A stretch of DNA of 64,000 nucleotides from Escherichia coli (lineage in GTDB: Bacteria; Pseudomonadota; Gammaproteobacteria; Enterobacterales; Enterobacteriaceae), in NCBI RefSeq assembly GCF_050320075.1, contig NZ_CP190018.1; one strand, written 5' to 3'. The translations under genes were made by a program, and so were the position numbers. The notes under the pieces are model-generated. The model was not told where the DNA came from. It saw only the letters and a list, made by a program, of their open reading frames with translations, and ran no database searches. Shown piece by piece: positions 1-41,204 of the stretch (position 1 is the first letter of the stretch; the number at the start of each line of letters is the position of its first letter).

Positions 1-95
1 CGTTGAGATTTTGCCTGCGGACGTCCTGGATACTTTTCATTTTCTGGAAAATCGCCTCATATATGAATCAGTAGATGATTCAATTTAAAGCAATA

Positions 96-158
96 TTACC
101 CAACAGGTAAATGCACCTCATGGGTAACTATCCTTGATTTTTGTTACCTTATGGGTGA
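96..158. promoter_or_regulatory. Operator cluster: three TTACC-N5-GGTAA type palindromes (96-110 perfect; 113-127 and 144-158 degenerate) upstream of Cro-like gene
   Basis: Read directly: TTACCCAACAGGTAA, GCACCTCATGGGTAA, TTACCTTATGGGTGA, spaced like a lambdoid OR region. Confidence 0.6.
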
Positions 159-194
159 ATATTTATTATCTGAAATAAATATCAGGCAATAGCT

Positions 195-425
195 ATGAGC
201 GATAACGGACATTTCGATTTCAAAAAGCACTGGCTTGCACTTACTCCGGATGAGCGTGAAGCCTTCGCACAGGAAGCCGGAACGACGAGTCACTATATCC
301 AGACTCACTTAACAGGTAAGCGCAAAATGCCAGGTAAAGTATTGATGAATGGGCTTTTTAAAGCCTGTAAAACAAGACAATGGCTGCGCTCAAAAGCAGA
401 ACTGGCATACTTCTTCTACTCATGA
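195..425 (+). CDS. Cro/CI-type helix-turn-helix regulator (Cro-like)
   Basis: 76 aa ORF; HTH-like segment AFAQEAGTTSHYIQTHLTGKRKMP; sits directly downstream of the operator cluster and upstream of the replication genes. Confidence 0.6.
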   Translation: MSDNGHFDFKKHWLALTPDEREAFAQEAGTTSHYIQTHLTGKRKMPGKVLMNGLFKACKTRQWLRSKAELAYFFYS

Positions 426-446
426 TATCCAGCTACAACCCTCTGT

Positions 447-470
447 AGACCGCCACCCGGCGGTCTTTTC
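447..470 (+). terminator. Rho-independent terminator after Cro-like gene
   Basis: Hairpin AGACCGCC-ACCC-GGCGGTCT followed by TTTT. Confidence 0.6.
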
Positions 471-480
471 ATATCTATTC

Positions 481-495
481 GTACCTCAAAGGTAA
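481..495. promoter_or_regulatory. Operator-like palindrome GTACC-TCAAA-GGTAA
   Basis: One-mismatch copy of the TTACC-N5-GGTAA motif, intergenic, followed by TAATAA. Confidence 0.5.
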
Positions 496-539
496 TAAAA
501 AACCAAATATGGTTGATATTTTTTTTGTGTCAGCACAAA

Positions 540-776
540 ATGACCGTAATCCCAATACTAATAACAGGGCTTACCATGGAAATCATTACACGTATTGATG
601 CCGCAAAGCGCGGACTTAAACGCTACTACACCGGAAAAACATGTAAGCACGGACATGACAGTGAACGCTGGGTTTACAACGGACACTGTGTTGAGTGCAC
701 CATGGAATCAAACCGTCGTATCAGGGCAGAGATTAAGCAGATCATGATTAATTCCTCCCCACAACATTCAAGCTGA
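540..776 (+). CDS. Hypothetical small Cys/His-rich (possible zinc-ribbon) protein; start uncertain (TTG 513, ATG 540 or ATG 576)
   Basis: ORF with CKHGHDSERWVYNGHCVEC segment; occupies the position between cro and the replication genes. Confidence 0.4.
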   Translation: MTVIPILITGLTMEIITRIDAAKRGLKRYYTGKTCKHGHDSERWVYNGHCVECTMESNRRIRAEIKQIMINSSPQHSS

Positions 777-791
777 TAGCGGAGATTAATC

Positions 792-1607
792 ATGAGCAGA
801 CATGCAACAGATTGGGCCTGGGAGACAGATCCAGGTAGCTCATCATTAAAGCTCATACTGCTCTCGATGGCTGACAGAGCCGATGAATATAACCTCTGCT
901 ACCCCAGCATAGAACGCCTCGTTAAAGACACTTGCCTGAATAAAAAAACCGTGCAGGCCGGGCTTATATCGCTCATGAAAATGGGGCTTATTTCAGATAC
1001 CGGAGAGAGAAAGGGAGCGACAAAAAGAGTGCGGGTTTTCTCTCTTAATATAACCAAAAACGGGAACATTAAAGGCAACCGGGAAGGGGGTAATGAACCC
1101 GAAATCGGTAATGTTACCGAAAACGGGAATATACCCAAAAACGGGATGTTGAATGATCCCAAAAACGGGATGTTGAATGATCCCAAAAACGGGATCCAGA
1201 ACCAGTCATATAACCAGTCATTTAACCAAGAGAGGGAGAGCAGGACAAAAAGCGGGGATTCTGTGCCTCATGACCCCGGAGCAAACAACGCCGTGATGAA
1301 TAACTTTGTTCCTCCTGGTGGGCCAGGGCAATTAGGCAAATTTGTCATGCATGAACAATGGCAGCCATCAGATGACTTTCTTCGGAAAAGCTCATTGCAG
1401 GGGATCTACCTGGACAGTCTGCCAACGGCACAGGAACTTGCAGAGTTCAGAATTTACTGGATGGCTGAGGGTAAGGCATACCATCAGGCACAGTGGGAGC
1501 AGAAGCTGGCAAGGCGGCTGCAGATTAGCAGACAGAAGCAATCAACATTACCTGATAACAACGTTCCGCACTGGAACAGCCCTGAAGCATGGGAGGATTT
1601 CTTGTGA
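792..1607 (+). CDS. Replication initiator, lambda O-like (N-terminal winged-helix DNA-binding domain, iterons inside the gene)
   Basis: 271 aa; GGAG RBS; repeated peptide PKNGMLND encoded by tandem DNA repeats; immediately followed by the P-like gene. Confidence 0.7.
   Translation: MSRHATDWAWETDPGSSSLKLILLSMADRADEYNLCYPSIERLVKDTCLNKKTVQAGLISLMKMGLISDTGERKGATKRVRVFSLNITKNGNIKGNREGGNEPEIGNVTENGNIPKNGMLNDPKNGMLNDPKNGIQNQSYNQSFNQERESRTKSGDSVPHDPGANNAVMNNFVPPGGPGQLGKFVMHEQWQPSDDFLRKSSLQGIYLDSLPTAQELAEFRIYWMAEGKAYHQAQWEQKLARRLQISRQKQSTLPDNNVPHWNSPEAWEDFL
1054..1200. repeat. Iteron array (probable phage origin): two perfect 24-bp units CCCAAAAACGGGATGTTGAATGAT (1134-1157, 1158-1181), a third truncated unit (1182-1200), and degenerate copies at 1054-1068 and 1116-1130
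   Basis: Direct tandem repeats read in the sequence, followed by the short direct repeat ACCAGTCATATAACCAGTCATTTAACC. Confidence 0.7.
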
Positions 1608-2389
1608 ACAACGTTTTTACCGCGATACAAAACCGTGACGGAGAAGCCCTTTCTCGCATGTCAGGTTATGAGCATCAGTACGTCAACAATGACAATGTGG
1701 TGAACATGTCAGCAGAGAGGCTTGTTGATGCCCTTTTTAAACAGCTGAAACAACTGTTTCCGGCGGCAGTGGTAACCAACCTGAAGACGCCAGAGCAGGA
1801 AGTTGCTGCAAAACAGCAGTGGATTGCTGCGTTTGCCGAAGGGGGGATCCGAACCCGTGAACAGGTTTCTGCTGGTATGCGCCACGCCCGCGCCAGTGAA
1901 TCTCCGTTCTGGCCGTCTCCAGGGCAATTTATCAAGTGGTGCAAAGACAGCAAGATGGTTCTTGGCGTCACCATTGACGATGTGATGGCGGAGTTTCACC
2001 GGTACAGCAAGGAAAAAAGTTTATATCCTGGTGGTCCCGAAAGATTCCCGTGGCGACATCCGGTTATGTACTGGGTCGTATGTGATACCCGCCGTGCAAT
2101 GTATCAGCGCCAGCTTAGCGAGATTGAGGTTGAGAAACACGCACGCAGGCTGCTCGATGATTGGGCGAAAAAGGTGGCTTCCGGACAGCAGATACCCGAT
2201 CCGGTGATCAGCATACAGGCAAAGCCAGAGCCCATGAGTACGCCTCCGGACACAGGGAGAGACGTTTACCATCCACCAGGGCGAAGTTTCGGGTGCATGC
2301 CTAACGCCGCCACCCTTGGGGGAATAACACCGGCGCAGTGGCTGATGGAGGAATACAGGCGGGGAAAGGCGGCAGGATTTATCAAGTAA
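1589..2389 (+). CDS. Replication protein P-like (DnaB helicase loader); start 1589 or GTG 1605
   Basis: Matches my recollection of lambda P, e.g. QQWIAAFAEGGIRTREQVSAGMRHARASESPFWPSPGQFIKWCKD versus lambda RQWVLAFRENGITTMEQVNAGMRVARRQNRPFLPSPGQFVAWCRE. Confidence 0.8.
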   Translation: MGGFLVNNVFTAIQNRDGEALSRMSGYEHQYVNNDNVVNMSAERLVDALFKQLKQLFPAAVVTNLKTPEQEVAAKQQWIAAFAEGGIRTREQVSAGMRHARASESPFWPSPGQFIKWCKDSKMVLGVTIDDVMAEFHRYSKEKSLYPGGPERFPWRHPVMYWVVCDTRRAMYQRQLSEIEVEKHARRLLDDWAKKVASGQQIPDPVISIQAKPEPMSTPPDTGRDVYHPPGRSFGCMPNAATLGGITPAQWLMEEYRRGKAAGFIK

Positions 2390-2426
2390 TACCAGCGCGA
2401 TAGCGCATTTTTTTACGTCTATATGA

Positions 2427-2503
2427 TTACCTGGAAGGTAATAAAATGTTCTAATCTCTATTGATTTCATGTCTTATGTGGTTTTTAATTACCTAAGGGG
2501 TAA
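2427..2503. promoter_or_regulatory. Two operator-like palindromes (2427-2441 TTACCTGGAAGGTAA; 2489-2503 TTACCTAAGGGGTAA) flanking a promoter region; the second abuts the start codon at 2507
   Basis: Perfect TTACC-N5-GGTAA copies read in the sequence. Confidence 0.6.
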
Positions 2504-2506
2504 ATC

Positions 2507-2854
2507 ATGAGAAAACAGATACAGGCTCTTGGTCGACTCAAAACAGGCCAGATGAACAAAACAGAATCTGCGTATTGCCAGCACCTTGAGCTGCGTAAAC
2601 GTGCAGGGGAAATCGCCTGGTATCGATTCGAGGGTATCAAGCTGCGGTTAGCTAATAACACGTTCTATACGCCCGATTTCGCTGTGATGCTCGCCACCGG
2701 CGAGATGGAGCTGCACGAAGTGAAAGGGGGATTCTGGACCGATGACGCCAGAGTGAAAACCAAAGTCGCCGCAGATCAGTATCCGTTCCGAATCATCGGG
2801 GTAACGGTTAAACCAAAGAAAGCAGGTGGTGGCTGGAACATCGAAGAGTTCTGA
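2507..2854 (+). CDS. DUF1064-like protein (putative PD-(D/E)XK-type nuclease of phage replication modules)
   Basis: 115 aa; motif YTPDFAV...ELHEVKGG resembles the DUF1064 signature as recalled. Confidence 0.5.
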   Translation: MRKQIQALGRLKTGQMNKTESAYCQHLELRKRAGEIAWYRFEGIKLRLANNTFYTPDFAVMLATGEMELHEVKGGFWTDDARVKTKVAADQYPFRIIGVTVKPKKAGGGWNIEEF

Positions 2855-2915
2855 ATCGACGATCTATTTAGTTATCAATGTAATCAATAAGTTATGTGGA
2901 TAAGCGAGGGTAAAG

Positions 2916-3482
2916 ATGGAAAGTAATATCAAAGGGTTAGTTGCCGCCGGGCATGAGATGGCTTCGGAACTGAAAGCAGAATGTGGTGCCGTTGATATGC
3001 GCAGTGTGGCAAAGCTGATCAGCGATTTGGCAACGCAACTGGAAGTGCAACTGGTGCGTGCTAATGCGCTGGCGGCGGAGAGTGCGGCAATGCATGAAAC
3101 TATTGAAGCCGTTCGGAGTGTTGCGGATAACTCCAGTGGAATTGCCGGATGGCATTTGAATGGCGATATCGCTACATGGGAAGAGATTCTTCCTGAAATT
3201 AACGATATCGAAACTCCAGCCACCGATGCTTTCCTGGCTGAAATTCGTGCGGAAGCACGCAACGAGGGGATTAACTATACCGCCAGCCGTCTTGCTGCTG
3301 CGTTCAATCACGGATTTATCAATAAATCTTTGCGTGAAGTTTTCGACGTTACACGCATGATTTTGTCAGCGAAAGAAGAGTTGGCTAATGAACCGCATCC
3401 GATTGATGGCCTGTCCGGTGAATATGCGGAGAAATCCCTTGAAGAATGGGCGGAACAGATTCGCAAAGGAGGCAAGCAGTGA
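2916..3482 (+). CDS. Hypothetical phage protein (nin-like region)
   Basis: 188 aa ORF, same strand, compact spacing. Confidence 0.5.
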   Translation: MESNIKGLVAAGHEMASELKAECGAVDMRSVAKLISDLATQLEVQLVRANALAAESAAMHETIEAVRSVADNSSGIAGWHLNGDIATWEEILPEINDIETPATDAFLAEIRAEARNEGINYTASRLAAAFNHGFINKSLREVFDVTRMILSAKEELANEPHPIDGLSGEYAEKSLEEWAEQIRKGGKQ

Positions 3483-3778
3483 GTGTATATCTTATTGATA
3501 AACGTCGACGTGGGCAACAAATACCACCTGTAGGAATTCCGAATCACACATGGTTTTGCGTACTTGATATCGATGGTATGGATGCGTTGGTTGACACTCG
3601 TCATTACTGCGATACCGCAACAGCTACTCCGGCGAAAGCAAAGAAAATGGCTGCTCTGATAGAAAACTGGACTCCACCTGATGGTTGGTGCAATGGGAAT
3701 GATCGAGATTGGCATGAAAAAATGAAGGGCTATATCTGCGATTTCTTACGTAAATGCAACGGATTCAGGGTGATGTGA
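3480..3778 (+). CDS. Hypothetical phage protein (GTG start)
   Basis: ORF overlapping the previous stop; start placement uncertain. Confidence 0.4.
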
Positions 3779-3779
3779 C

Positions 3780-4337
3780 ATGAACAAGATTGACTATCAG
3801 GCACTGCGTGAGGCGGCAGAGAAGGCAACGTGGGGAGACTGGGACTCATATAAACCACACCGTGGCGCACGTGGTTATGAGGTCCGACTAAGTAGTCAGG
3901 CCATTGCGCAACACGTTCTGAAAAACAACGCTGAATTTATTGCTGCCTTTAATCCAAAGATTGCTTTGGCACTACTGGATGAACGGGAAAGGAACCAGCA
4001 ATACATCAAATCCCGCGACCAGGAGAACGAGGATATTGCACTAACGGTAGGGAAGTTGCGCGTTGAGCTGGAAGCAGCAAAATCAAAACTCAACGAGCAG
4101 CGTGAGTATTACGAAGGTGTTATCTCTGATGGGAGTAAGCGCATAGCAGAGTTAGAAAGTGGTTCTCAGGCACAAAAGTTAGTTGAAGCAATCATTGTTG
4201 CGATAGAAAACGAACAGGAACGTCTTTTTGATGAAGATTACCTAATGGATTCGAAAGAATGCATTGACGTAATTCGTGAAGAAGTAAAGCGATGGGATGA
4301 TTCCCGCGCCGCTGGCATTGGCATCAAAGGAGAGTGA
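3780..4337 (+). CDS. ead/Ea22-like family protein
   Basis: 185 aa; N-terminus MNKIDYQALREAAEKATWGDWDSY resembles the lambdoid Ea22-like N-terminal signature; coiled-coil middle. Confidence 0.55.
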   Translation: MNKIDYQALREAAEKATWGDWDSYKPHRGARGYEVRLSSQAIAQHVLKNNAEFIAAFNPKIALALLDERERNQQYIKSRDQENEDIALTVGKLRVELEAAKSKLNEQREYYEGVISDGSKRIAELESGSQAQKLVEAIIVAIENEQERLFDEDYLMDSKECIDVIREEVKRWDDSRAAGIGIKGE

Positions 4338-4338
4338 T

Positions 4339-4602
4339 ATGGCAACTTTGACAAAAAAAGAACAAGCATGGTTGAGCGAATTACAGGACGTTCTTGATCG
4401 CTGCCCATCACCGAAAAAAATTGGTTTTTACACCATTGGCGATAAAAGCATTTACCTGTATGACCTGCGCCGCATGGATGAAATCATGGAGGCTCTTGAT
4501 AATCGTTCGTCAATGGATTGGTGTGTTGCTGTTCATGATATGAATGCCGGATTTGATGAAAAGATTTTATTCCCCTCATCAGTTGAAAGTACAGCAGGAT
4601 AA
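4339..4602 (+). CDS. Hypothetical phage protein
   Basis: ATG 4339 preceded by GGAGAG; 87 aa. Confidence 0.45.
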   Translation: MATLTKKEQAWLSELQDVLDRCPSPKKIGFYTIGDKSIYLYDLRRMDEIMEALDNRSSMDWCVAVHDMNAGFDEKILFPSSVESTAG

Positions 4603-4612
4603 GGACTAACAC

Positions 4613-5542
4613 ATGACCACTATTACCAAAGAGCGACTGCTGACAATCAGGCAGTGGCGCGAAACATACGGACCTGGTAGCAACGTTGTACTGCCAGCAG
4701 AAGAAGCGGAAGAACTGGCACGAATTGCTCTGGCATCGCTGGAGCAGAATGTACTATCGGGCAACTCTCCGCTTATTCCTGGTGAAGTGTTGTCCGCAAT
4801 CCGGGAGGTTGCCAGGATTCGTGCCGATTTCGATGATTTTGACGGTGACAGGCGAGGTATCGGTGATTGTCTGGATGAGGCCGAGCAAGAGCTTATCGTT
4901 ACCATTAACAAATATGCCAGTCAGTTGGCAGCAGAACCGATAGCGACTAATGACGTTCGAGAGCAGCAGACAGCCGTTCCGCCAGTTCCGGAAATACAGG
5001 ATGATGTCGCGCAAGCAATTGAAAATCTCAAGCAGAAGTTAGTGGAATGCAATCGCTATAACTACTGCGCAGATGCAGTTAAAGGCGTAGAGGATGCCTG
5101 CCATGCTGCCATGCTTCATAGTGCCGAACCTGCAAGTAATCATGAAGAGTTGCCGCTTGATTATCTCCAAGGTCAAAAAGATGGTCTTGAATGGGCTGCG
5201 CAGCTTGCAGAAGCAAATCACCCACAAACTGGCGACTGGCTTTACGATGACCCGCTGGAGGTGGCTAAAGCTATCAGAAAAGGTCCTGACATGCCCGAAT
5301 TCGATGGACCAACTCCGGCAACTCCGGATGGTTGGATAAGCTGTAGTGAGCGAATGCCGAACGATAAACAGTATGTTTGGTGTTGGGGTAAGTCTTACGG
5401 CTGGACTGAGTGCGATACCTTCGAAGGGTATTACGATTGGTCGAGAAACAAATGGTGGGCAGTTACTGACGATGGGGAAGAACCGGCATCGAAAGTAACC
5501 CACTGGATGCCGCTACCAGAACCGCCGCAGGAGGTGAAGTGA
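4613..5542 (+). CDS. DUF551 domain protein (nin-region type)
   Basis: 309 aa; C-terminal Trp-rich segment WCWGKSYGWTECDTFEGYYDWSRNKWWAV...THWMPLPEPP resembles DUF551. Confidence 0.55.
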   Translation: MTTITKERLLTIRQWRETYGPGSNVVLPAEEAEELARIALASLEQNVLSGNSPLIPGEVLSAIREVARIRADFDDFDGDRRGIGDCLDEAEQELIVTINKYASQLAAEPIATNDVREQQTAVPPVPEIQDDVAQAIENLKQKLVECNRYNYCADAVKGVEDACHAAMLHSAEPASNHEELPLDYLQGQKDGLEWAAQLAEANHPQTGDWLYDDPLEVAKAIRKGPDMPEFDGPTPATPDGWISCSERMPNDKQYVWCWGKSYGWTECDTFEGYYDWSRNKWWAVTDDGEEPASKVTHWMPLPEPPQEVK

Positions 5543-5548
5543 TGAACA

Positions 5549-5671
5549 AGTGCAACGCTCTGCTTTATGCCATGGTGATTGGTTTCGGCCTGGTTGCTGG
5601 TATCCGGGTTTATATTACCTGGGAGTCATTAATCAATCTGGCGTGGAGTGCGATTCGTGGCTAAATCCCCC
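5549..5671 (+). CDS. Small hydrophobic peptide, 40 aa (MNKCNALLYAMVIGFGLVAGIRVYITWESLINLAWSAIRG); not in the ORF track
   Basis: ATG 5549 preceded by strong SD GGAGGTGA; single predicted TM helix; translated by hand. Confidence 0.35.
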
Positions 5672-5995
5672 GCAGAACGCAAAGCCGCGCAGCGCGCTCG
5701 GCAGTCCGCCGCCGGTGAGCGCAAAATTGAACTGGTGCTGGATAAGCAGGAGCAGGAAATGCTGGAGCGTAACTGTGCCACGCGTCGCCCCGGGCGTGCG
5801 CCTTACGAATTTGGGGAGTATATAGCGTTACTGATCCGCCAGGATGATGCACGCGTGCGCGGGCGTATAAAATCGATTAGCAGAAAACGTTGCGGTAAGT
5901 GCGGCGAGAAAGTTCCCGTTAATTCATGCCCGTGTAATGGTGACTCGCAATGCTGGGTGACTAAAGGCTGGCATGAAACGAAATTAATAGTGTGA
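5657..5995 (+). CDS. Hypothetical protein with C-terminal Cys cluster (CGKCGEKVPVNSCPCNGDSQC); possible regulator
   Basis: ORF 5648..5995, likely GTG start at 5657; stop TGA lies inside the GTGACATGTCAC palindrome. Confidence 0.4.
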   Translation: MAKSPAERKAAQRARQSAAGERKIELVLDKQEQEMLERNCATRRPGRAPYEFGEYIALLIRQDDARVRGRIKSISRKRCGKCGEKVPVNSCPCNGDSQCWVTKGWHETKLIV

Positions 5996-6003
5996 CATGT
6001 CAC
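5992..6003. repeat. Perfect 12-bp palindrome GTGACATGTCAC (copy 1)
   Basis: Read directly; overlaps the stop codon at 5993-5995 and precedes the terminator at 6045. Confidence 0.9.
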
Positions 6004-6044
6004 GAGTAGATTATGCATGATGAATTTGATGGGTTTTGAATACT

Positions 6045-6070
6045 GCCGCCAACTATGGCGGCTTTATTTT
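6045..6070 (+). terminator. Rho-independent terminator
   Basis: Hairpin GCCGCC-AACTAT-GGCGGC followed by TTTATTTT. Confidence 0.6.
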
Positions 6071-6081
6071 GCATGGTACTA

Positions 6082-6114
6082 TTACCACAACGGTAACAAT
6101 TACCATGGTGGTTA
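6082..6114. promoter_or_regulatory. Operator-like palindromes at 6082-6096 (TTACCACAACGGTAA) and 6100-6114 (TTACCATGGTGGTTA, degenerate) upstream of terminase genes
   Basis: Read directly; they lie inside the over-extended track ORF 6036..6710. Confidence 0.55.
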
Positions 6115-6710
6115 TGATGCCTGCTGAACCTAAAACCTATAAACGCAAATCAACGCAATTTAAGCCACTAACCGCAATGCAGGAGGCTTATTGCCAGTCA
6201 TACATCAAAACGCCTGAAAACCAGACTCAGGCAGCGATTAACGCAGGATTCTCCCCAAATACAGCGGCAGTTAAAGCCAGTGTCATGATGCGCGATGAAC
6301 GCATTCAAAAACGGATTGCCGAGTTGATGGAGGAGCGCAACAAACGAATGCGCGTCAGTGCCGATTACGTTCTCATGCGCCTGGTGGAGATCGACCAGAT
6401 GGACGTGATTGATATCCTCAATGACGATGGGAGCCTTAAGCCAATCCGCGAGTGGCCGAAAATCTGGCGCACTACGCTTAGTGGCTTTGATCTGTCATCG
6501 ACCATCATGAACATGAACGAGGATTCGATAGAGACAATTCTCAAAAAAATTAAATGGCCTGACAAGGTGAAGAACCTCGAACTGATTGGTAAGCACGTCG
6601 ACGTCAATGCATTCAAAGAACGCCTGGATGTTAATGTGAATGTGACAATTGCTGATCGCATAGCGGCAGCCAGGAAGCGACTCAAAGAACGTCAGGATGG
6701 TAATCAGTGA
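6114..6710 (+). CDS. Terminase small subunit (start trimmed from track ORF 6036; true start 6105-6117 uncertain)
   Basis: Segment LTAMQEAYCQSYIKTPENQTQAAINAGFSPNTAAVKASVMMRDERIQKRIAEL resembles the terminase small-subunit DNA-binding domain; directly upstream of the large subunit. Confidence 0.6.
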   Translation: MMPAEPKTYKRKSTQFKPLTAMQEAYCQSYIKTPENQTQAAINAGFSPNTAAVKASVMMRDERIQKRIAELMEERNKRMRVSADYVLMRLVEIDQMDVIDILNDDGSLKPIREWPKIWRTTLSGFDLSSTIMNMNEDSIETILKKIKWPDKVKNLELIGKHVDVNAFKERLDVNVNVTIADRIAAARKRLKERQDGNQ

Positions 6711-8182
6711 CAGATACAGCGTTATCTCCTGAAGAGCAGTTGATCGAGGATATTGCAGGGTTCACTCACGATCCGCTTGGCTATGCCCTCTATGCGTTCC
6801 CGTGGGGGGAAGAGGGGACTGAACTGGCACATGCTACCGGCCCACGTCAGTGGCAGGCTGATGCGTTCCGAGAGATACGTGATCACCTGCAGAATCCAGA
6901 GACGCGCTATCAGCCGCTTATGCTGGCACGCGCTTCTGGTCACGGTATTGGTAAATCCGCATTCATCTCAATGCTGATCAACTGGGGCATGTCCACTTGC
7001 GAGGATTGTAAGGTCGTGGTGACCGCCAACACCGACAACCAGCTACGAACGAAGACCTGGCCGGAAATTATCAAGTGGTCGAACCTTGCTATCACGAAAG
7101 ACTGGTTTACCTGTACCGCTACTGCGATGTACAGCAATGATCCTGGGCACGACAAGCGGTGGCGAGCTGACGCAATCCCCTGGTCTGAGCACAACACTGA
7201 GGCATTCGCCGGACTACACAACGAGCGCAAACGCATCATCGTGGTATTCGATGAAGCGTCGAACATTGCGGATCTGGTGTGGGAAGTTGCTGAGGGTGCG
7301 CTTACGGACGAAGACACTGAGATTATCTGGGTGGCGTTCGGAAACCCTACACGTAATACCGGGCGTTTTCGCGAATGTTTCCGCAAATACAAACACCGCT
7401 GGAAAACTGCGCAGATTGACAGCCGGACGGTGGAAGGTACTAACAAACAGCAGTTGCAGAAATGGGTTGATGACTACGGGGAAGACAGCGACTTCGTTAA
7501 AATCCGTGTGCGCGGCATATTCCCTGATGCATCTGAATTGCAGTTTATCCCTACCGGTCTTACTGATGAGGCAATGAAACGGGTGGTAACCGCTGCGCAG
7601 GTTGCACATGCTCCGGTGATAATCGGCGTTGACCCGGCATACTCCGGAGTTGATGACGCTGTGATATACCTGCGGCAGGGGCTGCACAGTAAGGTGCTGT
7701 GGACTGGCAACAAGACCACTGACGATCTGATAATGGCGAAGCGTATCGCTGACTTTGAAGACCAGTACCAGGCTGACGCAGTGTTCATCGACTTCGGTTA
7801 CGGAACTGGTCTGAAGTCAATCGGTGACGGCTGGGGTCGTACATGGCAACTTGTTCCGTTCGGTGGCGCGTCTACTGACCCGCAGATGCTCAACAAGCGT
7901 GGGGAGATGTTCAACTCATGCAAGACATGGCTGAGGCTGGGCGGGATGCTGGATGACCAGGAAACAGCAGACGACCTGTCGACGGCAGAGTACAAAGTTC
8001 GCGTGGACGGTAAAATCGTTATCGAACCGAAGGAAGATATCAAGGAGCGGCTTGGGCGTTCGCCGGGTAAAGGCGATGCGCTACTGCTGACGTTTGCGTT
8101 CCCTGTGTCTAAGCGTCTGCGAATTCCCGGGCAGCAGAACCAGCAAGGCAAGGCCATTACAGATTACGATCCCTATGCTTAA
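6707..8182 (+). CDS. Terminase large subunit
   Basis: 491 aa; P-loop-like ASGHGIGKSAF; overlaps the small-subunit stop; typical size and position. Confidence 0.8.
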   Translation: MTDTALSPEEQLIEDIAGFTHDPLGYALYAFPWGEEGTELAHATGPRQWQADAFREIRDHLQNPETRYQPLMLARASGHGIGKSAFISMLINWGMSTCEDCKVVVTANTDNQLRTKTWPEIIKWSNLAITKDWFTCTATAMYSNDPGHDKRWRADAIPWSEHNTEAFAGLHNERKRIIVVFDEASNIADLVWEVAEGALTDEDTEIIWVAFGNPTRNTGRFRECFRKYKHRWKTAQIDSRTVEGTNKQQLQKWVDDYGEDSDFVKIRVRGIFPDASELQFIPTGLTDEAMKRVVTAAQVAHAPVIIGVDPAYSGVDDAVIYLRQGLHSKVLWTGNKTTDDLIMAKRIADFEDQYQADAVFIDFGYGTGLKSIGDGWGRTWQLVPFGGASTDPQMLNKRGEMFNSCKTWLRLGGMLDDQETADDLSTAEYKVRVDGKIVIEPKEDIKERLGRSPGKGDALLLTFAFPVSKRLRIPGQQNQQGKAITDYDPYA

Positions 8183-8232
8183 TCCGTTAGCGGGGATAAT
8201 GACGGAGATATCCTCTGGTGAGGATAAAACAA

Positions 8233-8259
8233 AGCCAGCTCATCGGCTGGCTGTTTGTG
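8233..8259. terminator. Bidirectional terminator hairpin
   Basis: AGCCAGC-TCATCG-GCTGGCT flanked by T-rich runs on both strands; ends + strand terminase transcription and the minus-strand gene 8273..8644. Confidence 0.6.
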
Positions 8260-8268
8260 ACATGTCAC
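8257..8268. repeat. Perfect 12-bp palindrome GTGACATGTCAC (copy 2)
   Basis: Read directly; between the stop of minus gene 8273..8644 and the terminator hairpin. Confidence 0.9.
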
Positions 8269-8272
8269 GGTG

Positions 8273-8644
8273 TTATTGCTCGCTTAACTTCTGCTTCAGC
8301 AAGTAACCTTCAAGCATCCAGATTTTGTTTACAGCATTCTGCCGGGCAATCTTCCGACCAATTTCCGCATCAAAGTTTTCCGGGCTTGCACAGGCGCTCT
8401 CTCCGGTGACGGTGAAGCCGTTGCGCAGCACCAGAACGCAGAACGTCAGCAGAGAAAGTGATTCGTGCGGCTGGTAGTTTACCTCTCCGCCAGTATGTTT
8501 CGCTTTTATGGCTACGCCAAAGACACCATCTTCTGCTGTGAAATATGCCTCCTGAGCAATAATGCTCTCGATATGGTCTGGCGTAACGCGCGGCGCGGCT
8601 AAACCTTTAGCCTGAATTTCAGATTCAATGTCTTTGTCACTCAT
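8273..8644 (-). CDS. Hypothetical protein, opposite strand (moron-like)
   Basis: 123 aa ORF on the minus strand between terminase and the tRNA, with its own terminator; family not recognised. Confidence 0.5.
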   Translation of the reverse strand: MSDKDIESEIQAKGLAAPRVTPDHIESIIAQEAYFTAEDGVFGVAIKAKHTGGEVNYQPHESLSLLTFCVLVLRNGFTVTGESACASPENFDAEIGRKIARQNAVNKIWMLEGYLLKQKLSEQ

Positions 8645-8761
8645 AGTCTAATCTCACCTTAAAAAAATGCCCGGCGAACCGGGCGAACTGGAAGCAATGA
8701 GTTATGCCTTCCGTGGCTGTACTGGTTTACAGCATGAAGTCATCGCAATGGCGTCCTGCTG

Positions 8762-8803
8762 TAAAAAGGGCGGTGATAGTCCTTCAAGGGAAACCATCAC
8801 CGC
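8762..8803 (-). terminator. Possible terminator downstream of the phage tRNA
   Basis: Imperfect hairpin GGCGGTGAT...ATCACCGCC followed on the minus strand by CTTTTTA. Confidence 0.4.
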
Positions 8804-8847
8804 CAAGCACCTGGAACTTCTGGCATCACGGTCCTTAGGCGTGATTC

Positions 8848-8924
8848 TGGCGTGGCATGCAGGATTCGAACCTGCGACCAACCGCTTAGAAGGCGGTTGC
8901 TCTGTCCAACTGAGCTAATGCCAC
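8848..8924 (-). tRNA. tRNA-Arg (anticodon UCU, reads AGA), phage-borne
   Basis: Hand-folded cloverleaf: 7-bp acceptor stem GTGGCAT/ATGCCAC, D-stem GCTC/GAGC, anticodon stem ACCGC/GCGGT with loop CUUCUAA, T-arm GCAGG-TTCGAAT-CCTGC, encoded 3' CCA. Confidence 0.9.
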
Positions 8925-9247
8925 AACGCTGAGAGCACTTAGCCTGTTAAGTGCGCCACACTTTGTCGCAGCTCCATAAATGCTCTCATCGTTGTACCCT
9001 CGTCTCTTCCGAGGCGTCACACCGAATCGCCGGGATGGTGAATCCCCGTGCGCGGAATAAAACCGCTCGACTTGCACATTCCGGCTACCTGGTTCGTTTG
9101 CCCGAGCAAGGGAGGGTGCCCCTTAAACGTATCCAGACCGCTATCGGCGCATGTGCCATACGCCGTACTGCTCAAAATAAAAGCTCACTCCACCTGTTCA
9201 ATTTAACGACAAGCCAGTCAGGTTAATAACCGGAATGAACCATTTAC

Positions 9248-9262
9248 TTACCTGAAAGGTAA
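9248..9262. promoter_or_regulatory. Operator-like palindrome TTACCTGAAAGGTAA upstream of the portal operon
   Basis: Perfect copy of the motif, followed by TAATAA. Confidence 0.6.
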
Positions 9263-9352
9263 TAATTCGTGCGTTAAATGTCAACTACCTACGATAAATA
9301 AATCATATGTGGTTAAATTGGTAATAATTTAATTGCGTACGGAGTCATTGAT

Positions 9353-9559
9353 ATGTGCATGGGTAGCTCACCATCAGTGCCTGCAACACCAGAAGTTCAG
9401 GCAGCACCACAGGAGCAGGATGCCGCCGTTGTTGATGCCCGCGACGAAGAAACACGTCGCCGTCGCGCTGCTGCTGGTCGTAGTTCTACGCTGCTTACCG
9501 GTTCTCAGGGCGACACATCAACTGCTAATACCAGCGGTAAAACGCTGCTTGGTCAGTAA
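9353..9559 (+). CDS. Small low-complexity protein (68 aa)
   Basis: GGAG RBS; its translation initiation region (CGGAGTCATTGA + ATG) is nearly identical to that of the portal gene. Confidence 0.45.
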   Translation: MCMGSSPSVPATPEVQAAPQEQDAAVVDARDEETRRRRAAAGRSSTLLTGSQGDTSTANTSGKTLLGQ

Positions 9560-9573
9560 CCGGAGTCATTGAA

Positions 9574-11253
9574 ATGGCGGAAACAACTAAAGAGCGATTG
9601 AGCAAACAGTTCGCACAACTTGAAAGCGAGCGTCAGTCGTTCGAGCCGCACTGGCGCGAGTTGAGTGATTACATCAACCCGCGTGGTTCCCGCTTTCTGA
9701 CTTCTGAGGCCAACCGTAACGATCGGCGCAATACACACATTATTGATTCGACCGGGACTATGGCGGCGCGCACTCTCGCCAGCGGCATGATGTCAGGCAT
9801 CACAAGCCCCGCGCGTCCGTGGTTTCGCCTGGCTACGCCAGATCCTGAAATGATGGATTATGGCCCTGTTAAGTTGTGGCTTGAGGCGGTGCAGAACCGC
9901 ATGAACGATATGTTCAATAAGTCGAATCTCTATCAGTCGCTGCCGCAGTTATACGGAAGCCTCGGCACATACAGCACCGGTGCAATGGCGGTACTGGAGG
10001 ATGATGAGGACATCATTCGCACAATGCCATTCCCGATAGGCAGTTACTACCTGGCTAACTCACCTCGTGGCAGTGTTGACACCTGTTTTCGCAAGTTCTC
10101 TATGACTGTTCGTCAGCTTGTTCAGGAGTTCGGGCTAAATAACGTCAGCGAATCCGTAAAAAGCATGTGGGAAAGCGGCATCTACGAGAAGTGGATTGAC
10201 GTGATGCATTCGGTTTACCCGAACATTGACCGCGATACATCGAAGCTGGATAGCAAGAACAAGCCATTCAAATCGGTTTATTACGAGGTTGGTGGCGATA
10301 ACGACAAGTTGTTGCGTGAGTCCGGATTCGATGAGTTTCCAATTATGGCTCCGCGCTGGGAAGTTAACGGTGAAGATGTTTATGGATCATCATGCCCGGG
10401 CATGCTGGCGCTTGGACCTGTTAAGGCATTGCAGCTTCTCCAGAAGCGCAAGTCGCAGTTGATTGATAAAGCCACCAATCCGCCGATGGTTGCTCCGACT
10501 TCCCTCAAGAATCAGCGCGCCTCCCTTCTTCCTGGCGACATCACGTATATCGATCAGATTACTGGTCAGGATGGCTTCAGGCCTGCTTATCTGGTTAACC
10601 CCAGTACAGCAGATTTGGTGGCAGACATTCAGGACACTCGTCAAATCATTAACAGCGCCTACTTTGTCGATCTGTTCATGATGTTGCAGAACATCAATAC
10701 CCGCTCGATGCCTGTTGAAGCGGTGATCGAAATGAAAGAAGAAAAACTTCTGATGTTGGGGCCGGTTCTGGAGCGTCTGAACGACGAATGTCTTAATCCT
10801 CTCATTGACCGCGCTTTCTCGATGATGGTGCGTAAAAACATGCTGCCGCCACCGCCTGACGCGATGGAAGGCATGCCCCTGAAGGTCGAATACATTTCCG
10901 TCATGGCTCAGGCGCAGAAGTCTATCGGCCTGTCCAGTCTGGCGTCCACGGTTAACTTCATTGGTCAACTTGCGCAAGCGAAACCAGAAGCTCTCGACAA
11001 ACTCAACGTTGATCAGGCGATCGATGCATTCGCTGATATGTCCGGAGTGTCTCCAACCGTCATTGTTCCGCAGGAACAGGTTGAGCAGGCTCGCCAGCAA
11101 CGGGCACAGCAGCAACAGCAGCAACAAATGATGGCGATGGGGATGGCGGCGGCACAGGGGGCCAAGACGCTAAGCGAAGCTAAAACTTCGGATCCGAGTG
11201 TTTTGTCAGCTATGGCGAATGCAGTTAGTGGTCAGGGTGGGCAATCACAATGA
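9574..11253 (+). CDS. Portal protein
   Basis: 559 aa, immediately after the terminase region; size and position typical. Confidence 0.7.
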   Translation: MAETTKERLSKQFAQLESERQSFEPHWRELSDYINPRGSRFLTSEANRNDRRNTHIIDSTGTMAARTLASGMMSGITSPARPWFRLATPDPEMMDYGPVKLWLEAVQNRMNDMFNKSNLYQSLPQLYGSLGTYSTGAMAVLEDDEDIIRTMPFPIGSYYLANSPRGSVDTCFRKFSMTVRQLVQEFGLNNVSESVKSMWESGIYEKWIDVMHSVYPNIDRDTSKLDSKNKPFKSVYYEVGGDNDKLLRESGFDEFPIMAPRWEVNGEDVYGSSCPGMLALGPVKALQLLQKRKSQLIDKATNPPMVAPTSLKNQRASLLPGDITYIDQITGQDGFRPAYLVNPSTADLVADIQDTRQIINSAYFVDLFMMLQNINTRSMPVEAVIEMKEEKLLMLGPVLERLNDECLNPLIDRAFSMMVRKNMLPPPPDAMEGMPLKVEYISVMAQAQKSIGLSSLASTVNFIGQLAQAKPEALDKLNVDQAIDAFADMSGVSPTVIVPQEQVEQARQQRAQQQQQQQMMAMGMAAAQGAKTLSEAKTSDPSVLSAMANAVSGQGGQSQ

Positions 11254-11546
11254 CAGATTACGAAGACGATCAACTGAAAGAAGAAAACGCCCGTAAGCAA
11301 CGTGACATGGCACAGCGTGAAATTGATGACATTCGCTTTGTCATGAGCTGTGAACAGGGGCGTCGGGTTGTCTGGTCGGTACTGGAGAAAGGCCGTGTGT
11401 TTTCCGCTATCTCGCCGATGGACGCTATGGCAATGGCATTTAATGAGGGGCAACGCAATCTGGCGCTGGAACTGTTTCAGCGCGTTATGGCGCATTGCCC
11501 TGAACAGTATTTGAAGATGGCCAAAGAGGCCAGTGAACAGGAGTGA
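11250..11546 (+). CDS. Hypothetical head-morphogenesis protein
   Basis: 98 aa ORF overlapping the portal stop. Confidence 0.45.
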   Translation: MTDYEDDQLKEENARKQRDMAQREIDDIRFVMSCEQGRRVVWSVLEKGRVFSAISPMDAMAMAFNEGQRNLALELFQRVMAHCPEQYLKMAKEASEQE

Positions 11547-11548
11547 TC

Positions 11549-12244
11549 ATGAATTTATTTGAGCGTTTGCTGTATAGCCGTCTTTGCAATGAGCAACCAG
11601 TCGATGGTGGAGCAGCTCCGGCTGCGTCAGAACCGTCAGCGCCTGCAGGTGATAACCCTGCTCCAGTTGGTGATCCATCACAACAGGAAGGTGATAAGCC
11701 ACAACCTGTTGCTGATGGCGATAAACCTGCTGATGACAAAAAGCCTGAAAACGATAAGCAGGATGAAAAAAAGGACGGCGATAAACCAGAGGGTGCGCCT
11801 GAGAAGTACGAGTTTCAGGCTGCCGAAGGCGTAGAGCTGGATACAGAAGCGTTGAAGGAGTTCGAGCCGGTGGCGCGAGAACTTAACCTGACCAACGAGC
11901 AAGCGCAAAAGCTGGTTGATGCTTATCCGAAAATTCTGGCAGGTGTTCAGCAGCGCCAGGCAGAAGCCTGGCAGAAAACAACCGAGCAGTGGGCTGCGGA
12001 TGTAAAAGCTGACAAAGAAATCGGTGGCGACAAGTTGATTTCTAACCTTAGCGCCGCACAGCGTGCGCTTGACCAGTTCGGGACACCTGAACTCAAAGAA
12101 TATCTGAACACCACCGGGCTGGGTAATCACCCTGATCTGGTCAAAACGTTCGTGAAAATCGGAAAGGCTATGTCTGAAGATGGCATGGTCACCGGTGGTA
12201 ATGAAGGCCAGCGTAGTGCGGCCGAAGTGCTCTATGGCAAATAA
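11549..12244 (+). CDS. Scaffold-like protein (acidic, Pro/Asp/Lys-rich N-terminus)
   Basis: Low-complexity acidic region with GDKP repeats; position between portal and capsid. Confidence 0.5.
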   Translation: MNLFERLLYSRLCNEQPVDGGAAPAASEPSAPAGDNPAPVGDPSQQEGDKPQPVADGDKPADDKKPENDKQDEKKDGDKPEGAPEKYEFQAAEGVELDTEALKEFEPVARELNLTNEQAQKLVDAYPKILAGVQQRQAEAWQKTTEQWAADVKADKEIGGDKLISNLSAAQRALDQFGTPELKEYLNTTGLGNHPDLVKTFVKIGKAMSEDGMVTGGNEGQRSAAEVLYGK

Positions 12245-12258
12245 GAGAGGAGATAACA

Positions 12259-13245
12259 ATGTCTGTTAAAGGCTTAACTGCGCTAACGCTGGCTGACTGG
12301 GGTAAGCGCGTCGATCCAAATGGGAAAGTCGATAAGATTATCGAGCTTCTCAATCAAACTAACCCAATTCTTCAGGATATGCCTTTTGTTGAAGGAAACC
12401 TTCCTACCGGACACCGAACCACCATTCGTTCTGGTTTACCTTCTGCTACCTGGCGTTTGCTGAACTATGGCGTACAGCCAAGCAAATCAACCACAGTGCA
12501 GGTCACCGATTCCATTGGCATGCTGGAAACCTATGCTGAAGTCGATAAGTCTCTGGCTGATCTGAACGGTAATACTGCCGAATTCCGTCTGTCTGAAGAC
12601 CGAGCATTTATTGAAGCGATGAATCAGGCGATGGCGCAGACACTGTTTTACGGTGATTCCAGCGTTAACCCTCAGCAGTTTATGGGACTGTCCTCCCGCT
12701 ATTCCAGCCTGTCTGCGGGTAATGCTCAGAACATCATTGATGCTGGTGGCACGGGTACAGATAACACTTCAATCTGGTTAGTGGTGTGGGGCGAAAACAC
12801 CGTGCATGGCATCTTCCCGAAAGGACAGAAGGCTGGCATTCAGATGGAAGATAAAGGCCAGGTGACACTGGAAGATGCTAAAGGCGGCAAGTACGAAGGT
12901 TATCGTACCCATTATAAGTGGGACAACGGGCTGACATTACGTGACTGGCGCTATGTAGTTCGTATCGCAAACATTGATGTCAGTAATCTTGACGCTCCTT
13001 CTACTGCCGCGAATATCGCAAAACTGATGATTCGTGCCCTTCATCGAATCCCAAATCGTGGGATGGGACGTCCTGTTTTCTACATGAACAGAACCATTAA
13101 CGAAGTGCTTGACCTGCAATCTCTGGAGAAGAGTTCTCTGGCGATCAGCGTGAAAGAGACAGAAGGCGAATGGTGGACAGCACTTCGTGGTGTGCCGATT
13201 CGTGAAACTGACGCACTTCTGGAAACAGAAGCCCGCGTGGTGTAA
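12259..13245 (+). CDS. Major capsid protein
   Basis: 328 aa; strong RBS GAGAGGAG; position after the scaffold-like gene. Confidence 0.65.
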   Translation: MSVKGLTALTLADWGKRVDPNGKVDKIIELLNQTNPILQDMPFVEGNLPTGHRTTIRSGLPSATWRLLNYGVQPSKSTTVQVTDSIGMLETYAEVDKSLADLNGNTAEFRLSEDRAFIEAMNQAMAQTLFYGDSSVNPQQFMGLSSRYSSLSAGNAQNIIDAGGTGTDNTSIWLVVWGENTVHGIFPKGQKAGIQMEDKGQVTLEDAKGGKYEGYRTHYKWDNGLTLRDWRYVVRIANIDVSNLDAPSTAANIAKLMIRALHRIPNRGMGRPVFYMNRTINEVLDLQSLEKSSLAISVKETEGEWWTALRGVPIRETDALLETEARVV

Positions 13246-13296
13246 CGCCTGTTATTAACCTGTGGGCCGCAACAGGCCCACTAATGGAGAAAGAAG

Positions 13297-13734
13297 ATGA
13301 TCACCGACAAACTGTTGATGTTCTCCGAAGCACAGGCGGTAACTGATACCGCGGCTTCTACTGACGTAATCGATCTCGGTCCAATTGACGGAAACCGTCG
13401 CGATATCGGTGTGGGTTACCCGCTTGAGTTTTGGGTGCTGGTTAACGAAGCCGCCACGGCAAGTGGTGAGGCAACTGTAAACATCCAGTTGCAGACGAGT
13501 GAGAATAACAGCTCATGGTCCACTATTTATGATAGTGGCGCACTGGCAAAGGCCACCCTGACAGCAGGTAAGCGAGTTGTTTCTGCAAAGGTGCCTGCCG
13601 GTGTTCAGCGATATCTGCGTGTTAACTACTCCGTCGCAACTGGCCCACTAACGGCTGGCAAATTCACTGCGGGTATCAATCTTGATGTTGATGCCAATAC
13701 GCCGTATCCGATCCGCTCAAAAGTAACTGGTTAA
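13297..13734 (+). CDS. Hypothetical virion protein (possible capsid decoration)
   Basis: 145 aa, GGAGAAAG RBS, directly after the capsid gene. Confidence 0.45.
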   Translation: MITDKLLMFSEAQAVTDTAASTDVIDLGPIDGNRRDIGVGYPLEFWVLVNEAATASGEATVNIQLQTSENNSSWSTIYDSGALAKATLTAGKRVVSAKVPAGVQRYLRVNYSVATGPLTAGKFTAGINLDVDANTPYPIRSKVTG

Positions 13735-13744
13735 GGTGATATTG

Positions 13745-14080
13745 ATGTCAGGTGAGAAACCAAGATACCGCGTTCTGCGCCTCTCTCATATCCATAACAC
13801 TCTGTGGCCGGAGGGGGCAGAAATCGAATACGAAGGTGAGCCTGGTAGCGCACTGGAACCTGTTAACGATGCAGCCAGACAGGCAAAAGCAAAAGTTGCA
13901 GGAAAGGTGTCAATGGCAGCAACCAGCACCAAAATCATCAACGATGTGTCAGATGATGGTGAACTGGATAAGCTCCGTGAAGAGTACGAATTGCTCTTTA
14001 ACGAGAAGCCACACCATAACGCCAAAGCCGAAACGCTCCGCGAGAAGATCGCAGATAAGCGTAAAGAACTGGGCGTGTAA
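13745..14080 (+). CDS. Hypothetical protein
   Basis: ORF 13736..14080 with ATG at 13745. Confidence 0.4.
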   Translation: MSGEKPRYRVLRLSHIHNTLWPEGAEIEYEGEPGSALEPVNDAARQAKAKVAGKVSMAATSTKIINDVSDDGELDKLREEYELLFNEKPHHNAKAETLREKIADKRKELGV

Positions 14081-14136
14081 GCCTCGCGAATCAGACAAGG
14101 GGCTTCGGCCCCTTTATTGCAGGAGTATAGAAACTT

Positions 14137-20843: not shown

Positions 20844-20844
20844 C

Positions 20845-25091: not shown

Positions 25092-25092
25092 T

Positions 25093-25464
25093 ATGAACAG
25101 AATTATATTAATGATTATTCTTATGCTTTTAGCTGTAAAATCTTTTGCAGATACTACCTCACCGTTAATGATTCAGCCTAAAAATGGGGAAACACTGGAG
25201 GACTCTAAAAAGCATACAATGGAATATTTTGGATGTATAAAAGGGCAGGCCGTAAAATACGCTAAGACAGGAGAAAGTGTTGATTCTATATCCAAAGCTT
25301 CGGTTGTGTCATGCGAGTCGTACATACAAAAGATTGCTGAATCAAATATATACTATTTAAATTCCTCTCAAGACGGTAAGCGGAAATTTATTGGAAGGCT
25401 TAAATCAGATGGTGAAAATTTAGCAACGAAATTTGCTATGGATGAAAAGCTAAAAAATAAATAG
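25093..25464 (+). CDS. AT-rich moron: small secreted/periplasmic protein (signal peptide MNRIILMIILMLLAVKSFA)
   Basis: 123 aa; visibly lower GC than flanking genes; N-terminal signal-peptide-like segment. Confidence 0.55.
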   Translation: MNRIILMIILMLLAVKSFADTTSPLMIQPKNGETLEDSKKHTMEYFGCIKGQAVKYAKTGESVDSISKASVVSCESYIQKIAESNIYYLNSSQDGKRKFIGRLKSDGENLATKFAMDEKLKNK

Positions 25465-25471
25465 GTGACAC

Positions 25472-25768: not shown

Positions 25769-25776
25769 CATGTCAC
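25765..25776. repeat. Perfect 12-bp palindrome GTGACATGTCAC (copy 3)
   Basis: Read directly; overlaps stop 25766-25768; followed by a terminator. Confidence 0.9.
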
Positions 25777-25800
25777 AGGCCGCTTTCGCGGCCTTGTTTT
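25777..25800 (+). terminator. Rho-independent terminator
   Basis: AGGCCGC-TTTC-GCGGCCT followed by TGTTTT. Confidence 0.65.

Positions 25801-37591: not shown

Positions 37592-41204
<3,613 letters not shown>

Follow-up and report, generated by a model that had tools for sequence, protein, structure and literature searches.

How is a gene transcribed that begins some 25 nucleotides behind an intrinsic terminator, on the strand opposite to that of the operon around it? The question is raised by a prophage of Escherichia coli. The window analysed here is a 64-kb stretch of contig NZ_CP190018.1, of which positions 1-33,290 are a phiV10-like prophage (Uetakevirus, epsilon15-like), as identified by blastn against Escherichia phage phiV10. 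Within its plus-strand operon, between the terminase genes (6036-6710 and 6707-8182) and the portal gene (9574-11253), lie a tRNA-Arg(UCU) gene (8848-8924) and an open reading frame (ORF) for a protein of 123 amino acids (8273-8644), both on the minus strand. A first-pass annotation, made from the sequence alone, had rightly placed both and had described them as two separate elements making up an insert at 8273-8924; that range does hold the two genes, but it leaves out a structured RNA of 171 nt (8996-9166) that belongs to the same minus-strand unit. The best explanation of the whole, to which we give a little better than even credence, is that 8233-9201 is a single leftward accessory unit. 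The order of its parts would be a promoter, the 171-nt leader RNA, a processing hairpin, tRNA-Arg(UCU), two terminators, a ribosome-binding site with a gene of the acb4 family, and a final terminator. The leader RNA would make RNA polymerase resistant to termination, in a manner like that of the put RNAs of phage HK022 though unrelated to them, so that the cargo gene is expressed past both terminators. The tRNA would add capacity for decoding AGA and AGG codons for the phage. The 123-aa protein would serve as an Acb4-type sponge for the cyclic dinucleotides, such as 3'3'-cyclic GMP-AMP (3'3'-cGAMP), of the cyclic-oligonucleotide-based antiphage signalling system (CBASS), by which the signalling of abortive infection would be blocked. 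The tRNA and the family of the ORF were already on record; what is new here is the lack of promoter room before the ORF, the variable cargo slot in which the ORF lies and the unannotated RNA.

The argument begins with the two intrinsic terminators that stand in tandem between the tRNA gene and the ORF. The first (8769-8804, minus strand) is a 14-bp stem followed by CUUUUU, with a free energy of -22.8 kcal/mol; the second (8669-8684, minus strand), found by a terminator scan, is the hairpin GCCCGG-UUCG-CCGGGC followed by AUUUUUUU, with seven U residues. The U-tract of the second ends at about 8661, the ribosome-binding site GGUGAG of the acb4-family gene lies at 8653-8658, and the start codon is at 8644, so that only some 25 nt separate terminator 2 from the start of the gene. 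A consensus scan of the sequence between terminator 2 and the acb4 start found no promoter-like site. As read from this layout, the acb4 mRNA must pass terminator 2, since the gap to the start codon is too short for a promoter, and it probably passes terminator 1 too. A further hairpin at 8233-8252, also from the terminator scan, forms the final terminator of the minus-strand unit; in the phiV10 record the same hairpin is the plus-strand terminator of the terminase operon. The earlier statement that each of the two elements has a terminator of its own thus stands to the extent that hairpins follow both of them, but the tRNA has two and both are upstream of the ORF. The independence that was ascribed to the two elements is contradicted by the lack of promoter room after terminator 2 and by the structured RNA with which the unit begins.

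Upstream of the tRNA gene, a minimum free energy fold of the minus strand from 9240 to 8925 places a long hairpin at 8930-8988, between the 171-nt RNA and the tRNA. It ends 5 nt ahead of the 5' end of the tRNA, the segment is 82% conserved in cdtI, mEp460 and the Stx2c phages, and it may be a processing site. Ahead of the 171-nt RNA, a relaxed scan gives a weak candidate sigma-70 promoter, TTGAAC-N16-TATTTT, at 9174-9201 on the minus strand (8 of 12 consensus matches). The score is under the cut-off of the consensus tool. Its -10 hexamer stops 8 nt short of where the RNA begins, and we take this to be the putative minus-strand promoter of the unit. The GC skew is negative over 8100-9300 and the GC content is near the phage average; the skew fits minus-strand transcription, and the composition is not foreign-looking.

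There is evidence from relatives that the end of terminator 2 is also a seam. phiV10 itself is collinear with the window (its positions 1-8133 match 5996-14129 at 97.3% identity, 8.1 kb that include the tRNA gene), and E. coli YZLc1-3 has the region on its chromosome at 100% identity. In other relatives, TL-2011b among them, similarity to the window starts at 8661 and extends only rightwards (8661-9600). Because these matches begin at 8661, sequence comparison puts the boundary of module and cargo, the one conserved and the other variable, exactly at the end of terminator 2. Among relatives the cargo is exchanged, and the terminase, tRNA and portal genes stay. In IMG/VR contigs that carry this module, the cargo, taken as the ORF that comes next after the terminators, proves to be an Acb4 variant, a Tad2-like protein or a protein of no known family (phrog_4846, phrog_3163 and others). 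The Tad2-like protein, of 98 aa, follows an otherwise identical module and is assigned both by Pfam (PF11195, E 4e-24) and by PDB sequences of Tad2/AcrIIA7 (E 1e-11 to 3e-15); in E. coli PD23 the RefSeq annotation has a 'DUF2829' protein in the same slot. The arrangement therefore recalls the accessory slots that hold Tad2 (DUF2829/PF11195), except that the window carries acb4, not tad2, where these relatives carry the Tad2-like gene. The cargo proteins of no known family are of 139-140, 115 (TL-2011b), 99 and 81 aa, and neither the 139-aa nor the 115-aa protein has a Pfam or PDB match; they are candidate anti-defence proteins. Judged from these sequences, the slot behaves as an exchangeable cargo position which in several relatives holds anti-defence genes. 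The proposal that the 123-aa gene is a moron is apt in so far as it is cargo exchanged between collinear relatives, but the gene has no promoter of its own immediately upstream. Because acb4 starts about 25 nt after the terminator, and because the cargo of the module varies, expression of the cargo would come from transcription that continues past both terminators.

What could allow such transcription is suggested by the RNA at the head of the unit. The gap between the tRNA gene and the portal operon, 650 nt long and poor in ORFs, contains a segment (9004-9166) that is about 80% identical to sequences in unrelated replicons. A covariance model (R1) built from such sequences delimits a conserved RNA of 171 nt at 8996-9166 on the minus strand; its score for the window copy is 136 bits (E 1e-42), and both the window and phiV10 have one copy only. 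Alignments were made of 9, 64 and 59 sequences; they contain conserved single-stranded blocks between helices that carry compensatory changes. The helices are a hairpin P1, a long-range helix P2 that encloses a variable hairpin, a hairpin P4 and a hairpin P5 with the loop GAAGAGA; the P4 loop, CACC, pairs with a downstream GGUG to form a pseudoknot. In the alignment of 59 sequences, the five helices and the pseudoknot are paired in 95.9% of 1,770 cells, and 14 of the 30 pairs change on both sides (120 cells). The observed pairing values were reached in none of 500 shuffles, and controls in which the structure was slid along the alignment were 28-43% paired. The alignment was seeded with an exact 19-mer, so that invariance in that stretch is built in, apparent conservation is inflated and taxonomic reach is limited. 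The structure is real and is strongly supported by covariation. Since G-U pairs are abundant, the sense strand is the minus strand of the window, and it is the same strand as that of the neighbouring genes in P1 and in lambdoid phages.

The element is widespread and has gone without annotation. Matches occur in the phage-plasmids P1, P7, D6, SJ46 and RCS47, in lambdoid phages (cdtI, mEp460, mEp390, the Stx2c phages, Stx2a_WGPS2 and BUCT708), in Klebsiella phage SopranoGao and in other Uetakeviruses, and all of them start sharply at window position 9166/9165. The invariant 19-mer is present in at least 120 IMG/VR contigs, and in genomes of Citrobacter, Klebsiella, Kosakonia, Phytobacter, Pseudescherichia, Buttiauxella and Candidatus Erwinia dacicola. 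Complete E. coli genomes in RefSeq have it at 2,466 places in 1,835 of 5,426 genomes, or about a third, and 554 of these places are on plasmids, those of the P1 type among them. Every RefSeq row that was sampled lacks an annotation at the element. Rfam 15 has no family matching the minus strand of 8996-9166 even at E <= 10, a scan at gathering level having returned the tRNA only, and none matching the 650-nt gap or the leader region of cdtI. Nothing describing the element came up in the literature that was searched for its conserved sequence, for RNAs resembling put and for antitermination RNAs of phages. The opposite-strand ORFs gp36/gp37 of mEp460 and orf40 of cdtI, which overlie the element in the phage records, are probably spurious. 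In epsilon15 a remnant of 31 bits by R1 covers only the 5' part of about 88 nt (positions 2635-2722 of the record); there is no tRNA, an acb4-like gene is retained behind one terminator, and for the same gap the GenBank record lists sites for 'RNaseIII', IHF and a repressor. In cdtI (about 2310-2500, minus strand), and also in mEp460 and the Stx2c phages, a stretch of about 190 nt bounded by GUGGU...ACCAC stands in the place of the tRNA, before a terminator; ARAGORN calls no tRNA in it and Rfam gives no match.

The surroundings of the element point to its possible function. Over distinct contexts, the 600 nt after the element contain a strong terminator (dG <= -14) in 100 of 119 cases, at a median of 229 nt; of 592 control windows, 79 contain one. 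Sigma-70-like promoters occur in the 110 nt upstream in 29 of 124 contexts and in 12 of 665 controls, and the distance from the end of the -10 hexamer to the element is either 7-9 nt or about 50 nt. The S24-peptidase motif G[DNE]SM, which is typical of repressors of the cI/LexA type, is present in an ORF ending no more than 400 nt upstream in 43 of 122 contexts. A tRNA-Arg(UCU) follows at 60-372 nt in 26 contexts that include several subtypes of the element. In cdtI, mEp460, mEp390, Stx2a_WGPS2 and BUCT708, the element comes immediately after the repressor gene, where the pL operon begins and where lambda has nutL and HK022 has putL. These phages lack an annotated N gene and have a terminator ahead of the first early-left gene. 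In cdtI, pL reads TTGACA-16-CATAAT, which matches the consensus at 11 of 12 positions, and the element is separated from the first early-left ORF by a strong hairpin terminator. In P1, the element is between trnI and ban, within the C1-controlled ban operon. By analogy, an element that heads early or repressor-controlled units in phages of different kinds, appears to need no phage protein and is usually followed by a terminator and then by genes has the logic of antitermination. For the window, we infer the antitermination role, the promoter and the timing of expression.

RNAs of the put type cause read-through of downstream terminators, in a process that depends on RNA polymerase's beta' zinc-binding domain. 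In HK022, put provides processive antitermination by RNA (PMC9378689). Like putL and putR of HK022 and the putL-like RNA of HK639, the element would act in cis from the very 5' end of an early operon (pL), with terminators after it, and be portable without a phage protein; there are also short motif echoes (ACGGCG...CAUGCGUCG). It differs in its size and shape, put having about 70 nt and two stems and the element 171 nt, five helices and a pseudoknot. It differs also in number and distribution, since HK022 has two copies (putL and putR), whereas the element occurs once per locus, and outside lambdoid phages and beside tRNA genes as well. Lambda offers two further comparisons, the pR'-tR' unit with its '6S' leader and the series pL-nutL-N-tL1; in both, as here, a promoter and a short leader are followed by a strong terminator before key genes, so that these are expressed only by read-through. 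The lambda units need the phage proteins Q or N, and no such protein is associated with the element.

Several points weigh against the account given above. The window has no convincing promoter, a consensus tool having found none and the relaxed scan having given only candidates at 8 of 12; the stretch homologous to the candidate is not promoter-like in some relatives. P1, SopranoGao and a few other contexts lack a nearby terminator. The order of promoter, RNA and terminator is also that of a gene for a stand-alone small RNA. No match to HK022 putL or to the annotated putL-like RNA of HK639 was found by blastn, by nhmmer with two hidden Markov models of the family or by cmsearch with R1, the gap having been compared by blastn with HK022 at 24-31 kb, and R1 with HK022 and with the whole of HK639 (putL was located at 4311-4240 of the extracted HK022 locus, L009). 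There is one element per locus and no putR-like partner; in 100 loci, with flanks of up to about 14 kb, exactly one was found each time and no second copy. Because the family models miss both put RNAs, the put analogy is one of function only. For the sake of completeness, an apparent HK022 match at 3928-3913 of the same locus was rejected as chance, as it lies inside the nun coding region, and putR of HK022 is itself not found by similarity to putL. Taking both sides together, we put the antitermination role of the element at not quite an even chance, and leave the balance to a stable RNA that acts in trans, which is considered next and which we hold unlikely, and to other roles, for example in processing or stability. 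With slightly more reserve, we propose tentatively that the 171-nt RNA may represent a new class of protein-independent processive antiterminator, unrelated to put and more than twice its size, which would control pL of many lambdoid phages without an annotated N, the ban operon of phage-plasmids of the P1 type, and the cassette of leader, tRNA and terminators that serves Acb4, Tad2 and other cargo.

Alternatively, the 171-nt RNA might be a stand-alone gene for a stable non-coding RNA that is produced together with the tRNA or by itself, is ended by the terminators and acts in trans, as a decoy, a sponge or a regulator of a host factor, while the cargo lives on terminator leakage. In its favour are the facts that the layout of promoter, RNA and terminator is enriched across contexts, that there is one copy per genome, and that the element is co-transcribed with tRNAs, which are stable RNAs themselves. 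Its presence in phages as unrelated as Uetakevirus, P1, lambdoid phages and Lastavirus, which implies that no phage protein is needed, suits a stand-alone RNA as well. Against it stands the lambdoid arrangement, in which the element, with a terminator after it, stands between pL and the entire early-left operon, so that a dead end there would silence genes that are needed. To this may be added the cargo genes that abut terminator 2 without room for a promoter, and the lack of conservation, across contexts, of the sequence from element to terminator. We consider a stand-alone RNA unlikely, though it deserves to be taken seriously, and continue with the single leftward unit headed by an antiterminating leader.

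The cargo of that unit in the window is the 123-aa protein encoded at 8273-8644 on the minus strand. It was first described as being of unknown function, which no longer holds, as it belongs to the PF13876/Acb4 family and its phiV10 orthologue is in the published list of Acb4 homologues. The match to PF13876 (named 'N4 Gp49/Sf6 gene 66', formerly 'Gp49/Sf6 gene 66') is end to end (model positions 1-82 of 82, E 3.3e-35). The only match that phmmer finds among PDB sequences is 9E4W, Acb4 of Bacillus phage SPO1 (E 0.007). An AlphaFold model (pLDDT 74) has chains of 9E4W as all of its top 13 Foldseek matches in the PDB, at probability 1.0 and with TM-scores of 0.61-0.70 on the target, and the next match has E 0.1. 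PADLOC and NCBIfam gave no match for the ORF, and PHROGs gave only an assignment to 'unknown function'. From these sequence and model comparisons together, membership of the Acb4 family looks solid.

PF13876 has been defined as the Acb4 family, whose members form tetramers that soak up 3'3'-cGAMP and CBASS signals related to it; 3'3'-cGAMP was bound by each of the eight PF13876 homologues that were assayed, and c-di-GMP by none (bioRxiv 10.1101/2024.12.30.630793). Homologues from phages of Gram-negative hosts differ in specificity in that they also bound 3'3'-cAA, and the 1,331 Acb4 homologues of Table S3 include the phiV10 and epsilon15 proteins (bioRxiv 10.1101/2024.12.30.630793). The phiV10 protein differs from that of the window by one residue. 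SPO1 Acb4 and the window protein share the fold, the full-length Pfam match and a conserved ENFxxEIGR region, but they are only about 23% identical, and the window protein is longer in its N-terminal part (123 residues as against 97 in the 9E4W chain). The residues that contact the ligand in SPO1 Acb4 (K36, F48, E49, V56, Y57, F62, N63, I66, T70 and K81) were compared. F48, F62 and I66 are kept, and K36 and K81 are outside the aligned stretch; the other five are changed (E49 to T, V56 to C, Y57 to A, N63 to D and T70 to I). With several contacts changed, the ligand specificity of the window protein can therefore be predicted only loosely, and that this member binds a ligand and acts as a sponge is something we infer by analogy with the assayed homologues.

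The tRNA gene is the only one in the 64-kb window. ARAGORN calls it as tRNA-Arg with the anticodon TCT at 8848-8924 on the minus strand, and Rfam family RF00005 agrees (73.3 bits, E 4e-14, as against a gathering score of 29), so that the fold is accepted by the scanners; it is argU-like and has an encoded CCA end. The argU sequence with which it was compared has exact matches (100% identity) in more than 5,300 complete genomes; a chromosomal 'tRNA-Arg' match that had been taken for argU was rejected, being a different tRNA-Arg beside tRNA-Asn. Phage tRNA and argU are identical at 64 of 77 positions (83%). Of the 13 substitutions, ten are compensatory and fall in pairs within the acceptor and anticodon stems; the remaining three are at 20a in the D-loop and in the variable loop. 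Both tRNAs have the same D-arm, T-arm, anticodon loop, discriminator base and CCA end. The set of nucleotides by which arginyl-tRNA synthetase recognizes its substrate comprises A20 and C35, together with U36, G73 and the CCA end; the phage tRNA agrees with argU at all of these and has the same anticodon, UCU. The divergence is thus, as far as the sequence can tell, that of a working gene under selection, and expression and charging are predicted. Records of O157 typing phages 9 and 10, SPN9TCW, SPC32H and ZX5 and of E. coli genomes in RefSeq already carry an annotation for the gene, and it is found in virion genomes too. The RefSeq record of phiV10 (NC_007804) has no tRNA feature, and has at 2672-2923 (window 8667-8918) the plus-strand 'hypothetical protein' PhiV10p04; as it overlies the tRNA gene and the terminators, this is probably a spurious annotation.

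The first-pass annotation had suggested that such a tRNA, which reads the rare codon AGA, supports late-gene translation or counters tRNA depletion, and a comparison of codon usage between prophage and flanking host ORFs is in keeping with a role in codon supply. AGA accounts for 58 of 10,102 prophage codons and 20 of 9,524 host codons (5.7 and 2.1 per 1000), and is thus 2.7 times commoner in the prophage (Fisher p = 5e-5); AGG stands at 4.95 per 1000 in the prophage and 1.78 in the host. The tailspike gene alone has 11 AGA codons. These counts come from a crude selection of non-overlapping ORFs. The excess of AGA and AGG in the prophage makes codon supply a plausible role for the tRNA. The tRNA-Arg genes of Stx phages (argN/argO), like argU, similarly read rare codons, as the phage tRNA would do here for an AGA-rich phage, but argN/argO are downstream of Q and pR', whereas the gene in the window is inside a cassette of leader RNA, terminators and cargo.

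It is also conceivable that the tRNA is mainly a means of counter-defence, a spare for a host tRNA-Arg that an anticodon nuclease or a toxin has cleaved or depleted, which would be compatible with the single leftward unit. The tRNAs by which T5 escapes the PARIS or retron nucleases are a precedent, the cargo of the cassette includes anti-defence genes (Acb4 and Tad2-like), and at each pair that varies in its acceptor and anticodon stems the tRNA departs from argU, the loops being kept. The anticodon loop, however, is the usual target of such nucleases and is identical to that of argU, we are aware of no nuclease among the defences of E. coli that is specific to tRNA-Arg(UCU), and the codon bias by itself already explains why the gene is retained. 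We think a predominantly defensive role improbable.

More improbable still is the view closest to the first-pass annotation, in which a codon-compensating tRNA and an unrelated moron of unknown function are independent genes with their own terminators, in a region that is otherwise empty. The tRNA, the ORF, the terminators and the bias in AGA and AGG on which it draws are real, but the ORF is of a functionally characterised family and is without promoter space of its own, and the 'empty' gap of 650 nt is filled by a conserved structured RNA.

That the tRNA might be a remnant of a host attB site at a prophage end can be dismissed almost with certainty, as nothing but the general habit of phages to integrate at tRNA genes speaks for it, and the gene is complete, is inside the 97% identical phiV10-collinear stretch, is present in virion genomes, and is 24 kb from an attR whose core is that of a phage integrating at guaA. 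The core, ATTGAGTGGGAATGATT, is 17 bp long and occurs as an exact single copy at 33274-33290, where the prophage ends (attR); the match to phiV10 stops at 33290, exactly at the end of the core, and host genes lie beyond it, with ppx at 37592-39133. The Uetakevirus ZX5 has the same att core and integrates at guaA, its attB being the 3' end of that gene (PMC9782041).

Two other features of the prophage were noted. The stretch 18640-26967 has no blastn match to phiV10, and both of its flanks do match; it appears that a block of internal virion or tail genes has been replaced relative to phiV10. On the minus strand, Rfam places a C4 antisense RNA (27713-27799, 79.5 bits) and an isrK-like RNA (27819-27895, 74.2 bits) side by side, adjoined by a minus-strand ORF of 279 aa (26978-27817). 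The region 27713-27895 with this ORF looks like an antirepressor control region of the P1/P7 type.

The tRNA and the protein that first drew attention to this locus are, taken singly, ordinary, the former being annotated in sister phages and the function of the family of the latter having been published late in 2024. The main interest is in the wiring, that is, a module of leader RNA, tRNA-Arg and two terminators joined at a constant point to cargo that is exchanged, part of which is recognisably anti-defence, as with the Acb4 anti-CBASS sponge and the Tad2-like anti-Thoeris sponge. Because known anti-defence genes occupy the slot, phrog_4846, phrog_3163 and the other cargo proteins of no known family are direct candidates for new anti-defence functions. 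Should the leader indeed prove to be an antiterminator RNA, phages would have just one other system of this kind, the put RNAs of HK022, and the leader would be far commoner than these.

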